A DNA stretch of 64,000 nt from Candidatus Latescibacterota bacterium (GTDB taxonomy: Bacteria; Latescibacterota; UBA2968; UBA8231), in the NCBI GenBank assembly GCA_965221775.1, contig CBDCSU010000005.1:1344001-1408000 (forward strand), given 5' to 3'. How positions within the stretch are numbered: position 1 is the first letter of the stretch; each line of letters begins with the position of its first letter. Of the stretch, positions 24,738-34,355 are shown in pieces. The position numbers and the translations under genes are program-made. Below the pieces are notes generated by a model that was given only the letters and a program-made list of their open reading frames with translations, had not been told where the DNA came from and ran no database searches.

Positions 24738-25433
24738 TCAGTTCTTTCGGCTCCGTGGAAGCCTGTGTACAGGCCACAGCGACTCGATCTTCTCATAGTT
24801 ATCCATCAAGAGCCAGTTGGCCCTCCCCGTTTCATCCTTAATCTCCGCTGGAGCCCGTGCCATTTCCTCATACGAAGGGGCAATTACGAAAGCAACGTCC
24901 TGGAGTTGGAAGTCTAGATCATGCGGCACTCGCCACTCTCTCTCGTGCGTATAGTCCACTGCTCTTCTCTTATCCCAGAATCGGTCCTTGTATTCCTGGG
25001 GAGCATATGAAGGACAAAAGGGGGTGACGAAGGAAAACAGGGTGCCATGAAACGCTTGATTGTCTGAACCTGTGTGTTGCTTTTGGTGCTCCATCAATCC
25101 CGGTGTAAGGTAGATAGCAGGTGCGCCCCCTCGGCCAAATAAGTATGCCTTGCTGAAGCCCAACCCAAATCGAGAGTACCGGTTCGCATGATCCAGCAAG
25201 CTCCCCCAGGTACACTCCGTGAAGCACACTGCGGGCTTGTTGGTCCAAGGCATCTTGGTCGCCCGCAGTCTTCTCTCCCGAAGAATGGCTATTAGCCTCT
25301 CACCCGCCGAAAGACCCCGGACTCTGTCCAACTCCAGATCCCGTCCTTCTTCCTTGAATGAGAATGGAGCCGTGCCCTTTGTAAAATGCACAACGAAATC
25401 AGAGAAGTCCGGACGTACAAAGCGATCAACCAT
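24738..25433 (-). CDS. AbiGi-like protein (ART-like H/S/E motifs)
   Basis: VVHFTK, VCFTE, RYSRFGLGFSK, GGAPAIY, DYTHEREWRVP. Confidence 0.7.
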   Translation of the reverse strand: MVDRFVRPDFSDFVVHFTKGTAPFSFKEEGRDLELDRVRGLSAGERLIAILRERRLRATKMPWTNKPAVCFTECTWGSLLDHANRYSRFGLGFSKAYLFGRGGAPAIYLTPGLMEHQKQHTGSDNQAFHGTLFSFVTPFCPSYAPQEYKDRFWDKRRAVDYTHEREWRVPHDLDFQLQDVAFVIAPSYEEMARAPAEIKDETGRANWLLMDNYEKIESLWPVHRLPRSRKN

Positions 25434-25556
25434 TGAGCAACCCCTTCATGAAAGATCTCAAGAATACCCGAAGCTCCCGTGCACCGGCTCCTATGTTAGG
25501 AGAAAGAACCTCCTCAGGTTCAGCTGCCCCCACTTACCTTCCCTCCGCGACTCGCC

Positions 25557-26789
25557 CTAAAGCTGCGCGGGTAAAGCGGCTTCAGAATCCTCAAGATGAC
25601 CCTGATAATCCTTCCGTAGTTTATCTTCCTCCACGTTCCCGAAACCCAGCATGTAGAGACTGAGTCGTACTGCAAGACTACGGGCACCCGTCTCCATTCG
25701 ATTGTTCCGGAAAATGGTCCCCCGCCAGGGTACACTTCCAACCACCATAGGTAGTCTCGCTACACGCTTTATCACCGTCTGCCAAACTCGCGGATCCAGC
25801 TCAGAACCCCGCGCGATGGGGCTCTCCATTTCCTCCGAAATTGCGCTACCTAGTATCGTCCCGTAAATGCGCAAGCCTACGGGCCTCATCAGGAGGTGTC
25901 CGGCTGCCGCATCACCATCCGGCTCTCTAATTTCGCCTGGGGACCGTGTCTCATCTTCCAAATCCCTGAGAACATCGAAGCTGTCACGAAGAGCCATCCA
26001 TAGGGATGCCAAAGCGTTATATGTGTTCTCTACGTGCGACACATCGGGCCGAAACCTCAAATAGGTCTTGTCATATCCGTAAACCGCATCAAGAACCGCA
26101 AAGTTGAAGTCCCACAGAGCAGCCAAAGAGGTGAACTTGTCATGCTGGGCCTTCTTGAGATTCTTCTGAATCAGCTCCAATGACTGCGGATTAAGTAACT
26201 TGATGCCGGACTTGAGCAGCATCCGGGTTGCAATCGAGACTACGTTGTCTTCGTCTAGCGCGATCTCCTCACCCGTTGTTGTCTTCTTGGCGTACCTGTT
26301 AAGTGTATGAAATAGCCTCCTAGTCTGGATATTGCCTTCCTCTGTTCTGTCGTGAGTCAAAAAGATCACTGACACTTCCTCGCGCCGAAGCGTTGAATCC
26401 CTCCTGATTGCCTGCTCAACAGACTTCAATCTGTGCTGTCCATCCAAAGCAAAGTACTCCTGTCGACCATCGAATTTCAGAAGGCCAAACTCAAAATCGT
26501 CATCTAGTAACGGATGATCCTCCATTCTCACCTTTATGTACCCCGGCTTTCCTCCCCAAGCAGCCACGATTATCGCGCCGTAAAACCGTTCAGGTTGCTT
26601 CAGGAGGTAATCTGTCATCTCTTCCGCACGCTTTGACAAGCGTCTTTGCAGTAGCTCATCTAGGTCTGGAGACGCATCCAGATCTTCGTAGAACTGAACT
26701 TTCGACGCCAATTCCTGAAAGGTCATCTTGCCGATGTAGTAGTCGCGTCCTCCCATCCTGCCTCGTATCACTGGAATTAGGTCAGCCAC
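25557..26789 (-). CDS. DGQHR-domain (DndB-like) protein
   Basis: IPVIRGRMGGRDYY, LQRRL, YLLKQPERFYGAIIVA, ALDGQHRL, RRLFHTLNRYAK. GTG start overlaps an AGGAA RBS at the end of the upstream gene. Confidence 0.85.
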   Translation of the reverse strand: MADLIPVIRGRMGGRDYYIGKMTFQELASKVQFYEDLDASPDLDELLQRRLSKRAEEMTDYLLKQPERFYGAIIVAAWGGKPGYIKVRMEDHPLLDDDFEFGLLKFDGRQEYFALDGQHRLKSVEQAIRRDSTLRREEVSVIFLTHDRTEEGNIQTRRLFHTLNRYAKKTTTGEEIALDEDNVVSIATRMLLKSGIKLLNPQSLELIQKNLKKAQHDKFTSLAALWDFNFAVLDAVYGYDKTYLRFRPDVSHVENTYNALASLWMALRDSFDVLRDLEDETRSPGEIREPDGDAAAGHLLMRPVGLRIYGTILGSAISEEMESPIARGSELDPRVWQTVIKRVARLPMVVGSVPWRGTIFRNNRMETGARSLAVRLSLYMLGFGNVEEDKLRKDYQGHLEDSEAALPAQL

Positions 26790-32276: not shown

Positions 32277-33171
32277 GGCGACTCAATCCCTCACTCGTGT
32301 AGTGCGCTTCGAGCCAGTCGATCTCATCCCGACGTTCCACCACTAGCCTTCGTTGCCCCGCCAGTCCCTGGATTTCGAGACTGACCTGTGGCTGCTCCAC
32401 CTGCACGGCCGTCTCGTACAGGCCCTCGGCCGTCATGCAAAAGGCGTTCCCCGGACCGCCCCGCCGCTGGGACGCTTCCTGCACCGATGCCTGGATGGGG
32501 CCGTCATGCGCGTCACTTCCAAAGGCCCTGGCCAGGGAGTAGCAGAGGATGTGCGCGGGGATTGCCTTCGTGGCCTTGTTGACCTCGTAGTACCCGCTCG
32601 TGCGGTAGTGGGAGAGTAGGCCCAACTCGGTGAAGGGAGACTCCTGCGCCTCTTCGGGGTCCACCCCCCGGTCGGGGATACTCCTCGAATAGCTCAGGAG
32701 CAGGCAGCTCGCGTCCCGGTCGAGGGTGCGGGGGCTCGGGACCCGGCTGCCCTGCATCTGCAGGAACCGTTGCAGGCCTTCGATGCAGACGGCCTTGTCG
32801 AAGCGAGGCAGCTTGAAGTTGTTGAAGAACCAGTCCCAGGTGACGGCGTGCTCCGGGCTGCTGATCAGGTTCACGTGAAGCGCCCACCAGGTGCCGATGT
32901 CGGTGAAGTAGGGGTCGCGCTCCCAGACGAGGTGGCCGAGGCCCGTGGGCTCCAACATGGCTCCCTTGCGGTGCCGGCCTCCCCCGACTTGCTGGCACAG
33001 GCCGGTCGCCTGTAGCCAGTGACGAATCGACTTGGCCATGTTGCGGCCCACGCCGAGCCAATCGGCGACGTGCTCGTGGCAGAGCTTCTCGGGCTCCTCG
33101 GCCACCAGCTTCAGCCCCTTGTGCAGCCACCCTTCCCGGACGGGGAAGGTCTCGTGCCCTGCGAACCTCAT
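32266..33171 (-). CDS. sspB: DUF4007 family protein, SspB-like
   Basis: FAGHETFPVREGWLHKG, LGVGRNMAKSIRHWL, DPYF, WWALH, ESPFTELGLL. Confidence 0.82.
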   Translation of the reverse strand: MRFAGHETFPVREGWLHKGLKLVAEEPEKLCHEHVADWLGVGRNMAKSIRHWLQATGLCQQVGGGRHRKGAMLEPTGLGHLVWERDPYFTDIGTWWALHVNLISSPEHAVTWDWFFNNFKLPRFDKAVCIEGLQRFLQMQGSRVPSPRTLDRDASCLLLSYSRSIPDRGVDPEEAQESPFTELGLLSHYRTSGYYEVNKATKAIPAHILCYSLARAFGSDAHDGPIQASVQEASQRRGGPGNAFCMTAEGLYETAVQVEQPQVSLEIQGLAGQRRLVVERRDEIDWLEAHYTSEGLSRHAA

Positions 33172-34355
33172 TCGGCCACCTCCGACAGTTCCATCCGCTC
33201 CGTCCCCCTCCACCCGGAGAACGCCCGGATGCGGTCCACCTCCTCCGCCACGGCCGCCCAGGCCGCCGCCACCTCCTCCCCGTCGTTCAGCACCGACAGG
33301 CTGAAGCGGACGCTGGCGTACGCCTCTTCCTCCGACAGCCCCATGGCCCGCAGCACGTGGGACGGCTCCGGCCGCTGGTTGGTGCACGCCGAGCTCTGGG
33401 AGCAGCGGATGCCGCGCTGATCCAGTCGCGCCACCAGGGCCTCTCCGTCCACGCCGTGGAAGAGCAGGTTCGTGGTGTTGCATACACGGGCCCGGGAGTC
33501 ACCGTTCACGGTCACGCCGCCGCAGCGATCGATGATCTCCCTCTCGAGGCGGTCTCGCAGACTGCCGAGGCGGGCGATCGTCTCGTCGAGGGATTTCTCC
33601 CGCAGGCTGGCTGCACATCCCATGCCCGCGATGCCTGGCACGTTCTCGGTGCCGGCGCGCAGACCCGACTCCTGATCGCCGCCCTCGATGAGGCCTTCGA
33701 GCCGGGTAGCGCCGCCCACGTACAGGGCGCCCACTCCCACGGGGGCGTGGAACTTGTGGCCCGCAATCGACGCGTAGTCGACGGGCCGATCCCGCAGGCC
33801 CAGCGGCAGCTTGCCCACCGCCTGCGCCGCGTCCGTGTGGAAGGGCACCCCCGCCCCGGCGCACAACCGCCCGATCTGATCGATCGGCTGCACGACGCCC
33901 GTCTCGCTGTTGACCCACTGGATGGAGACCAAGTCGGCCCGCCCGGCCAGCGCTCGCCGCAGATCCTCGGGATCGACGAGGCCGCCGCCGCTGACGGGCA
34001 GGAGCACCACCTCTGTCCCTTGGCGGCTGCACCTGTCGAGCCCGGCGAGGACGGAGGAGTGCTCGACGGCGGTGGAGATGATCCTCGTGCCCGGACCGGA
34101 GAATCCGCGCAGGACGGTGTTGTTCGCCTCGGTGGCGCCGCTGGTGAAGATGATGGCGCCGGGGCCGCAGCCGAGAAGGGAGGCCAGGGATTCCCGGGCC
34201 ATGCGCAGTTGCTCGCGCCCGCGCTCGCCGGCGGTGTGGCTGCTGGAGGGATTGCCGAAGGCCGCCAGGGCGTTCAGGACCGCGGCGCGGACCTCCGGCA
34301 GGGGCGGGGTCGTGGCGTTGTTGTCGAGATAGACCTCGGAGGGCGGGTTGCTCAA
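33168..34355 (-). CDS. sspA: Cysteine desulfurase (IscS/DndA/SspA-like)
   Basis: YLDNNATT, GNPSS, FTSGATE, HTDAAQAVGK, AGHKFH (PLP Lys), SSAC catalytic Cys; coupled to the DUF4007 gene by ATGA. Confidence 0.88.
   Translation of the reverse strand: MSNPPSEVYLDNNATTPPLPEVRAAVLNALAAFGNPSSSHTAGERGREQLRMARESLASLLGCGPGAIIFTSGATEANNTVLRGFSGPGTRIISTAVEHSSVLAGLDRCSRQGTEVVLLPVSGGGLVDPEDLRRALAGRADLVSIQWVNSETGVVQPIDQIGRLCAGAGVPFHTDAAQAVGKLPLGLRDRPVDYASIAGHKFHAPVGVGALYVGGATRLEGLIEGGDQESGLRAGTENVPGIAGMGCAASLREKSLDETIARLGSLRDRLEREIIDRCGGVTVNGDSRARVCNTTNLLFHGVDGEALVARLDQRGIRCSQSSACTNQRPEPSHVLRAMGLSEEEAYASVRFSLSVLNDGEEVAAAWAAVAEEVDRIRAFSGWRGTERMELSEVAE

Follow-up and report, generated by a model that had tools for sequence, protein, structure and literature searches.

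Introduction

What serves as the restriction arm of an operon that writes phosphorothioates (PT) into DNA when none of the described partners can be recognized beside it? This question is raised by a 64,000-nucleotide stretch of a Candidatus Latescibacterota genome (GenBank assembly GCA_965221775.1, contig CBDCSU010000005.1, positions 1,344,001 to 1,408,000), called the window here in its whole length, in which an sspABCD operon is followed by three genes of lower G+C content (GC). The first encodes a 420-residue nuclease with a GIY-YIG domain, the second a protein of the DGQHR/DndB family, and the third an AbiGi-like protein. A model that read only the letters of this DNA had proposed that the three make up one effector cassette (referred to below as the original prediction). 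Our analysis indicates that the nuclease and DGQHR genes form a conserved unit—the pair—and that the third gene lies outside it. The pair is probably an undescribed nuclease arm of PT defense.

Neither sspE nor sspFGH is reported near 83.9% of 2,678 sspBCD loci (PMC8092258), and the question of what partners these "orphan" writers have is the one on which the pair bears. A GIY-YIG and DGQHR pair that recurs at the ends of ssp operons is a concrete candidate for such a partner.

A Conserved Pair of Genes

The pair and the domains of its nuclease lie at the following positions of the window.

26792-28054, minus strand: three-domain nuclease of 420 residues (long form), with no Pfam or PADLOC family; AlphaFold2 model with a predicted local distance difference test score (pLDDT) of 86
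27512-28054, minus strand: HEPN-like helical domain of the nuclease, residues 1-181, with its Rx4H motif (R150-H155) at 27590-27607
27251-27496, minus strand: small beta domain of the nuclease, residues 187-268, seen as strands in the AlphaFold2 model
26819-27154, minus strand: GIY-YIG nuclease domain, residues 301-412, placed by VIA-align and Foldseek fold matches
25557-26789, minus strand: DGQHR/DndB-family ParB-fold protein of 410 residues (Pfam DndB, 4.9e-29), with the DGQHR motif (D116-R120) at 26430-26444

The DGQHR gene starts 2 nt past the stop codon of the nuclease gene. The same arrangement, with the nuclease gene directly 5' of the DGQHR gene, is kept with gaps or overlaps of -8 to +7 nt in the window and in loci L001, L002, L008, and L009, and with -4 to +9 nt in seven loci of the window's phylum; translation of the two genes is probably coupled. 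Among 35 relatives of the 420-residue protein, 22 are co-located with a DGQHR relative, as judged in a hand count by equal size of the longest contig, and the closest relatives of both proteins (77% and 84% identity) lie together on one contig of 47,621 bp. Two loci of long-form relatives, the only ones examined in genomic context, are L001, from a Vicinamibacterales genome, and L002, a metagenome contig; in both, the long-form homologue is directly followed by a DGQHR homologue, with ssp genes alongside.

A tblastn search of 72,556 plasmid records with the DGQHR protein gave five full-length matches at ~28% identity, and in all five records an open reading frame (ORF) of 168-196 residues overlaps the DGQHR start. 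These short ORFs are homologous to the GIY-YIG domain (hhalign probabilities of 96%, 96%, and 54%), and tblastn with the small nuclease from Roseobacter returned exactly those five of the 72,556 records and no others. On Roseobacter pROLI83 (L009), sspA-B-C-D, the small nuclease gene, and the DGQHR gene are followed by a convergent PLD, ATPase, and helicase set. The short pair of Rhizobium pTiK1_93 (L008), to which two further plasmid records are near-identical, adjoins an SspFGH-like set with an FtsK-like protein and a convergent sspD-sspC, and that of Rhizobium pRspNXC14a (L027) adjoins a complete dndBCDE operon with its own dndB.

Most loci contain the short nuclease (~165 residues). The long form with its fused HEPN-like domain is seldom seen: 5.8 billion proteins yielded 35 clusters of it, and an exhaustive profile search gave 23 representatives at E < 1e-30. 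Of ~340 matches (338) in the nuclease profile search, ~300 are 150-210 residues long and match the C-terminal domain only, and in a survey of the window's phylum the long form occurred only in the window's own genome (G000). The long form in this window is a rare version of the pair's nuclease.

The two proteins may also form a physical complex, for which structure prediction gives weak support. The nuclease and DGQHR proteins together reached a median score of 0.35 (runs of 0.00, 0.35, and 0.60), compared with 0.00 for the best of three controls; the runs agree in at least 0% of contacts, and the pLDDT of the partner is at least 77. Of 80 solved complexes, 58 reach the pass mark, as do 2 of 110 mismatched pairs, and scores that pass at no more than 0.60 comprise 7 of the 80 solved complexes and both of the passing mismatches.

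Linkage to Phosphorothioate Writers

Upstream of the pair lie the four genes listed below.

33168-34355, minus strand: sspA, a cysteine desulfurase of 395 residues (PADLOC SspA, 1.7e-120, positions 1-374 of 374 in the model; Pfam Aminotran_5, 7.7e-62)
32266-33171 (likely start), minus strand: sspB, a DUF4007 protein of 301 residues, with a longest ORF of 32266-33483 (Pfam DUF4007, 1.8e-63; PADLOC SspB, 2.3e-109)
28941-32276, minus strand: sspC, an ATPase of 1111 residues (PADLOC SspC, 8.5e-153, positions 3-1050 of 1054; BrxC weaker, at 9.5e-76)
28133-28948, minus strand: sspD, a PAPS-reductase-like PP-loop protein of 271 residues (PADLOC SspD, 1.3e-90; Pfam PAPS_reduct, 1.6e-13)

The layout is as the original prediction had it: all seven genes are minus-strand ORFs running in the same direction between 24738 and 34355, and the first four overlap, sspB with sspC by 11 nt and sspC with sspD by 8 nt. 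Translation of sspB likely starts with the ATG at 33171; this codon is preceded by GGAGG and overlaps the stop of sspA in the sequence ATGA. Judged by matches to the PADLOC models of SspA, SspB, SspC, and SspD, each of them nearly full length, the four genes are an SspABCD PT writer operon. Modules of this kind place PT on a single strand of host DNA, for example as C-PS-CA.

All nine further loci that were found through the pair's own proteins adjoin PT writer genes, eight of them Ssp genes (L001, L002, L008, L009, and L044-L047) and one of them Dnd genes (L027). Pair loci span at least three phyla as well as plasmids; among them are loci of alphaproteobacterial plasmids and of an acidobacterial genome, and a single locus beside dnd.

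The survey of the window's phylum covered 168 genomes, and its counts come from genomes that are related, and thus not independent, and from a first-look genome search that missed several short copies. Strong matches to the nuclease profile occur in G000 and four other genomes, all of which have SspD; in those four, sspA-B-C-D, a small nuclease, and a DGQHR gene follow one another in that order. SspD is present in 44 of the 168 genomes. A gene of the pair's DGQHR type lies no more than 7 kb downstream of sspD in 12 of the 44, with a GIY-YIG-like ORF just upstream of it in 10 of these 12; this count draws on 39 further stretches around SspD matches, four of them cut by contig ends, whose ORFs were scanned with our own profiles. 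The frequency of SspD in this phylum is far above the 3.0% of representative genomes in which sspBCD is reported (PMC12914056).

Other gene sets were also observed after ssp operons. A three-gene cassette, consisting of a superfamily 2 (SF2) helicase (ResIII/Helicase_C), a GHKL ATPase (HATPase_c_3, MzaB-like), and a PLD-family nuclease and bearing no PADLOC system name, follows ssp operons with or without the pair in L045, L046, L053, L062, L064, L065, L066, L074, L083, and L009, and large GHKL ATPase proteins follow the pair in some loci of the phylum. PbeA and PbeC are partners of Dnd systems, and PbeA-like (4.4e-191) and PbeC-like (1.9e-55) genes lie directly after sspD in L048, L067, L072, and L076. 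Beyond the pair in L002, positions 9656-14945 hold two more DGQHR-family paralogues (655 and 485 residues) and an SNF2 helicase, and the 485-residue DGQHR type recurs after sspD in G144, G145, G157, and G100 at 45-63% identity.

The Three-Domain Nuclease

No Pfam, PADLOC v2.0.0, or NCBIfam family was matched by the 420-residue protein, and its division into helical, small beta, and GIY-YIG parts comes from the AlphaFold2 model, which was built with 25 relatives. In Foldseek searches of the PDB, the whole models of the nuclease and of the DGQHR protein matched nothing at E <= 0.001, and only domain-level rows are usable.

At the level of domains, VIA-align matched the GIY-YIG part to T4 EndoII (Z 11.3, root-mean-square deviation 2.5, 103 residues aligned), the UvrC N-domain (Z 9.7), and I-TevI (Z 9.3), and Foldseek matched it to UvrC with a probability of 1.00 and a template-modeling score of 0.66-0.71. 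An alignment of 44 long and short forms shows no variation at Y325, Y343, G345, or R353, and at least 90% of these forms retain E398; N410 is mostly kept. On the strength of the predicted fold and these catalytic residues, the C-terminal domain belongs to the GIY-YIG (URI) nuclease superfamily.

The helical domain carries the motif R150-N-K-C-A-H155-G, of which R150, N151, C153, A154, H155, and G156 are invariant in 25 sequences. HEPN proteins are marked by a four-helix fold with an Rx4-6H motif. The VIA-align matches of the helical domain to many such proteins (among them 8xdj, 1jog, 5yep, LsoA, RnlA, sacsin, and Csm6) have Z of 5-7, which is weak for a helical bundle. No match to the beta domain was reported in the Foldseek and VIA-align searches, which barely tested that part, and an ESM Atlas search with residues 1-290 gave a best score of 0.87 and unnamed clusters only. 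The complete HEPN-beta-GIY-YIG architecture is also present in distant relatives of ~450 residues (P0303, P0306, P0311, P0314, P0330, and P0349), among which neither RNKxxxH nor any GIY-YIG residue varies; a scan of viral contigs with these relatives found zero loci.

The DGQHR Partner and the Question of Regulation

The 410-residue protein is a member of the DGQHR/DndB family, in the ParB superfamily. It matches Pfam DndB at 101.9 bits (cut-off 29.1) and the NCBIfam DGQHR domain TIGR03187 at 93 bits (cut-off 58.85), and ALDGQHR is invariant in 28 sequences. The pLDDT of its model is 77.5, and the 10 best VIA-align rows for residues ~14-168 are all of the ParB/Srx fold (Z 4.1-6.0), with matches to sulfiredoxin, PadC, KorB, ParB, SerK, BrxU, and SspE; a search of PDB sequences with the DGQHR profile gave nothing at E <= 1. 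DndB proper was considered and rejected, since the protein scores 72 bits against the equivalog TIGR03233, whose cut-off is 328, and the operon is ssp, not dnd. This difference in score, together with the presence of the pair in L027 beside a dnd operon that has its own dndB, argues that the protein is not simply DndB.

A ParB-like domain and a HEPN domain are described for DndB (PMC3632139), and a DndB-like ParB-fold protein is reported to bind both ATP and GTP (bioRxiv 10.1101/2025.10.10.680097). Published work describes DndB itself as regulating the level of PT, not as acting as an effector (PMC4507180; PMC10853773), and one would accordingly ask whether the pair assists the PT writer in regulation or maintenance, as the Ssp counterpart of DndB, with restriction left to other modules or to none here. 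The DGQHR protein would then limit or target PT installation, through promoter binding or use of nucleoside triphosphate (NTP), and its GIY-YIG partner would aid the access to, or the turnover of, PT sites. Membership in the Pfam DndB family speaks for such a role, and so does the position of the pair, which always abuts writer genes and usually stands right after sspD and before other effector-like cassettes. In addition, the DGQHR protein is better conserved than the nuclease (60-84% versus 40-77% identity on the same contigs), which fits a conserved ligand rather than an arms race.

We nevertheless regard a regulatory role as rather unlikely. The pair of L027 stands beside a dnd operon already provided with a dndB, and the nuclease active site is complete in all 44 aligned members, with the glutamate E398 kept in the proportion given above. 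Only 12 of the 44 SspD-bearing genomes of the phylum have the pair, so that the writer does not need it. Moreover, the same slot holds plain nucleases in this genus, and the HEPN-like domain added in the long form is of a kind typical of effectors.

The Slot after sspD

The ssp loci of congeners lie between the same amidohydrolase and sulfatase genes as that of the window. In G004, sspABCD is intact (86% nucleotide identity), and the contig ends just past sspD; a partial ORF after this sspD was considered as a relative of the nuclease and rejected, since the contig end truncates it and it has no relationship to the family of the nuclease. Three genomes of the same genus keep sspA, sspB, and sspD at this site without sspC (equivalent to 28941-32276 of the window): in G007 (L018) and G002 (L019) the deletion of sspC is clean and sspD abuts sspB, and in G006 (L020) a DDE_3 insertion sequence or transposase replaces sspC.

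Each of these three genomes carries a different nuclease between sspD and the amidohydrolase gene, the proteins being a 474-residue HNH_4 protein, a 359-residue NOV_C protein (PADLOC PDC-S36, 4.8e-52), and a 439-residue HNH_2 protein with a type-IV-like region. The presence of different nucleases after sspD in three congeners makes this position a hypervariable nuclease slot. The original prediction had placed the last three genes in an effector slot, and as to the position it was right, the site after sspD behaving as one where nucleases are swapped; the conserved unit within it is the pair, not the trio.

The trio was found in none of 20 relatives of the window's genome. Its three genes are AT-richer than the writer genes, as had been claimed from a spot count, with GC of 0.51-0.53 (0.57-0.59 at third codon positions, GC3) versus 0.62-0.71 (GC3 0.77-0.90) for the ssp genes; the flanking amidohydrolase-family and sulfatase genes have 0.68 and 0.72 (GC3 0.93-0.94), and the window as a whole has 69%. 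One sample, probably that from which the assembly was made, has three runs whose contigs each span 24300-28600 with zero differences, and both junctions of the low-GC block are reproducible because they are covered by these separately built contigs. The low-GC block of G000 is a recent arrival in the slot. No tRNA genes were found in the window, and no att-like direct repeats flank 24.7-37.1 kb.

A marine metagenome run from another study (X5) gave short contigs that match only 24324-24644, in the amidohydrolase flank and with 7 differences, and 28335-28489, in part of sspD; past 24644 and before 28335 their sequence is unlike that of the window. This run may hold a relative with different slot content.

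Such a slot might also gather genes that have nothing to do with PT, and the pair might then be an autonomous mobile defense or selfish nuclease cassette, independent of PT, that accumulates in defense hot spots including the ends of ssp operons. Recent transfer is suggested by the low GC and by the lack of the pair in all 20 relatives, the varied nucleases of congeners mark the slot as a hot spot, and GIY-YIG domains are found in homing endonucleases, of which I-TevI is among the fold matches given above. We consider this improbable all the same, because all nine of the loci found via the pair proteins, in at least three phyla and on plasmids, are beside PT writers. Likewise, strong matches within the phylum occur only in genomes with SspD, within the limits already stated for that survey.

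The AbiGi-Like Gene

The remaining low-GC gene is separated from the pair by a gap of 123 bp.

25506-25521, minus strand: terminator-like hairpin, found by a consensus scan inside the 123-bp gap between the DGQHR and AbiGi-like genes
24738-25433, minus strand: AbiGi-like gene, 231 residues (Pfam AbiGi, 25.4 bits versus a cut-off of 22.4, marginal)

That all three low-GC genes constitute one three-component PT-dependent restriction or abortive-infection system, as was proposed in the original prediction, now appears very unlikely. The genes do share orientation and GC, stand together in the slot after sspD, and are joined on single contigs in each of three runs from one sample. However, when recurrence of the trio was surveyed, the first two genes were found to recur beside PT writers, and the AbiGi-like gene was never with them, being absent from L001, L002, and 12 other pair loci. 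The AbiGi-like protein has 265 relatives, the best at 67% identity, and none of the 119 listed is co-located with relatives of the pair, as judged by longest-contig size; the pair's own closest relatives, by comparison, share a single contig. The gap and its terminator-like hairpin also separate the gene from the pair, although the hairpin is a hint only, as the number of terminator-like sites is not above the shuffled expectation. The AbiGi-like gene is thus a neighbor of the same low GC outside the conserved unit.

The AbiG system (AbiGi with AbiGii) was considered for this gene and rejected, since the AbiGi match is marginal, the neighbors are the DGQHR gene and an amidohydrolase-family gene, and AbiGii was found in none of nine scanned proteins. 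In a scan of viral contigs, the AbiGi-like protein gave one locus (L007, 43% identity).

Absence of the Described Partners

The original prediction could recognize no SspE, SspFGH, PglZ, or BrxL partner at this locus, and this has held up: none of the three downstream proteins has a PADLOC match to any of these at E <= 0.01. For SspE, the trio has no match to PADLOC SspE or to Pfam GmrSD_N or GmrSD_C at that threshold. The genome does encode two DUF262 and DUF1524 proteins of the GmrSD family, ~0.95 Mb and ~0.1 Mb away (genes at C5:416063-416740, L003, and C5:1265706-1266407, L004), with HEC-06 (7.6e-203) and HEC-05 (9e-210), respectively, as their best PADLOC matches. They were rejected as an SspE encoded elsewhere, the SspE models matching only the first ~100 residues of both.

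SspFGH has no PADLOC match in the trio; SspG and SspH models were applied at the locus, and the genome-wide search, which covered the SspF models only (PDLC02793, PDLC02794, and PDLC02795), gave a P-loop of 50-60 residues or nothing. Type 4 BREX, which has BrxP, BrxC, PglZ, and BrxL in a single locus, is likewise rejected, with neither PglZ nor BrxL at the locus and the genome's only PglZ lying in a type 1 BREX locus on another contig. That locus, on contig C4 of G000 at ~1,085,000-1,099,000 (L026), holds a complete type 1 BREX system (BrxA, BrxC, PglX, PglZ, and BrxL), in which PglX takes the form of two overlapping ORFs (467 and 998 residues); this split may reflect a frameshift or phase variation.

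Proposed Role of the Pair

We lean toward reading the pair as a nuclease arm coupled to PT, one that would work as SspE does but is split into two proteins and has another nuclease domain. Tight pairing, an intact active site, and linkage to both Ssp and Dnd writers lead to this reading, as do coexistence with a genuine dndB, the nuclease slot, and the published mechanism of SspE, in which a DUF262 ParB-fold NTPase, triggered by PT, activates a DUF1524 nickase (PMC10952713). The DGQHR ParB-fold protein would be an NTP-driven reader of DNA or of its PT state, as DUF262 is in SspE, and would permit nicking or cleavage of DNA by the GIY-YIG domain. RNA cleavage by the HEPN-like domain of the long form may provide an additional, abortive-infection back-up. 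The pair would have entered the hypervariable slot after sspD together with the AbiGi-like gene by horizontal transfer, in keeping with a GC of ~51-53% versus 69%. PT sensing, nuclease activity, and an anti-phage role would all be expected of such a pair.

A bolder form of this proposal is that the DGQHR and HEPN-beta-GIY-YIG proteins are the sole restriction arm here and represent a third class of Ssp effector, in which a PT-reading NTPase of the DndB type controls both DNA nicking and a HEPN RNase. We hold this to be possible, albeit with more doubt than belief; if true, direct restriction and abortive infection would be joined in one partner protein.

Several observations weigh against a role as the nuclease arm. 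Another effector-like cassette stands beyond the pair, as seen from sspD, in most related loci, and the pair therefore need not be the restriction arm: the SF2 helicase, GHKL ATPase, and PLD set lies beyond the pair in L045, L046, L064, L066, and L009, PbeA/PbeC-like genes accompany the pair in L076, and SspFGH-like genes and an FtsK-like protein do so in L008. The DGQHR protein has no PADLOC SspE match at E <= 0.01, its fold match to SspE is weak (Z 4.1), and it belongs to the Pfam family of DndB, a described regulator of PT level. The HEPN assignment rests on the motif and on Z values of 5-7, which are common for helical bundles. Finally, the complex prediction is weak, with one of its three runs at 0.00.

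Our literature searches, outside of which lay supplementary tables that may list such neighbors, found no paper on a GIY-YIG and DGQHR pair. What is new is that an intact SspABCD has the HEPN-beta-GIY-YIG long form as its one evident partner; the wider family of ~450-residue relatives with both motif sets and the genus-level view of the slot are new as well. Since no other effector is evident at the long-form locus, it offers a clean setting for the question of whether phage can be restricted by the pair on its own.

Other Features Upstream of the Operon

Upstream of sspA, a 76-nt direct repeat (88% identity) is present at 35025-35100 and 36950-37025. It corresponds to an N-terminal peptide shared by orf123 (34829-35200) and orf166 (36595-37095), which bracket orf448 (35267-36613). 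The 448-residue product of orf448 is 93-99% identical in three congeners and has no family match. No similarity was found among orf448, orf166, and an unknown 487-residue gene of L001, or between any of these and the trio.

Comparison with Known Systems

GmrSD and BrxU are type IV restriction enzymes, single polypeptides of DUF262 and DUF1524 that target modified DNA. The pair resembles them in combining a ParB-fold protein with a nuclease, and the N-domain of its DGQHR protein matches the fold of BrxU at Z 4.1; unlike these single polypeptides, however, the pair consists of two proteins.

The SspABCD-SspE system (Xiong et al., 2020; Gao et al., 2022; both as described in PMC10952713 and PMC8092258) shows both similarities and differences. 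It has the same four writer genes as the window, its effector position is likewise directly after sspD, and a ParB-fold NTP-binding module is likewise combined with a nuclease. In the window, by contrast, separate genes encode the nuclease and, after it, the sensor-like module; the ParB-fold part of the latter is of the DGQHR/DndB type, not DUF262 (DGQQR); the nuclease is GIY-YIG, not DUF1524 (His-Me); and the long form adds HEPN-like and beta domains. As in SspABCD-SspFGH (PMC8092258), the same writer module has a multi-gene partner, although the trio of the window has no Walker-A SspF and no FtsK-like SspH. Because the short pair lies beside an SspFGH-like set on pTiK1_93, the pair and SspFGH are distinct modules.

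With DndB of dndBCDE (PMC4507180; PMC10853773; PMC3632139) the DGQHR protein shares the DGQHR motif, the Pfam DndB family, the ParB-superfamily fold, and a place beside PT writers. It differs from DndB in its equivalog score (72 versus 328 bits), in being coupled to a GIY-YIG nuclease gene, and in occurring, in L027, also beside a dnd operon that has its own dndB. The tie between a DndB-like protein and an intact nuclease argues for functions of the DndB family beyond transcriptional control.

SspE is treated as the equivalent of DndB by Rakesh, Aravind and Krishnan (2024; PMC10853773), who also describe Dnd systems bordered by stand-alone URI (GIY-YIG) and HEPN nucleases, for which they propose a role as back-up or suicide effectors. 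The window has in common with these the linkage of GIY-YIG/URI and HEPN domains to PT loci. The accessible part of that study deals with Dnd systems and stand-alone nucleases and mentions no obligatory pair or fusion of this kind, whereas the window presents a GIY-YIG and DGQHR pair, linked to Ssp, with HEPN, beta, and GIY-YIG domains fused in a single nuclease.

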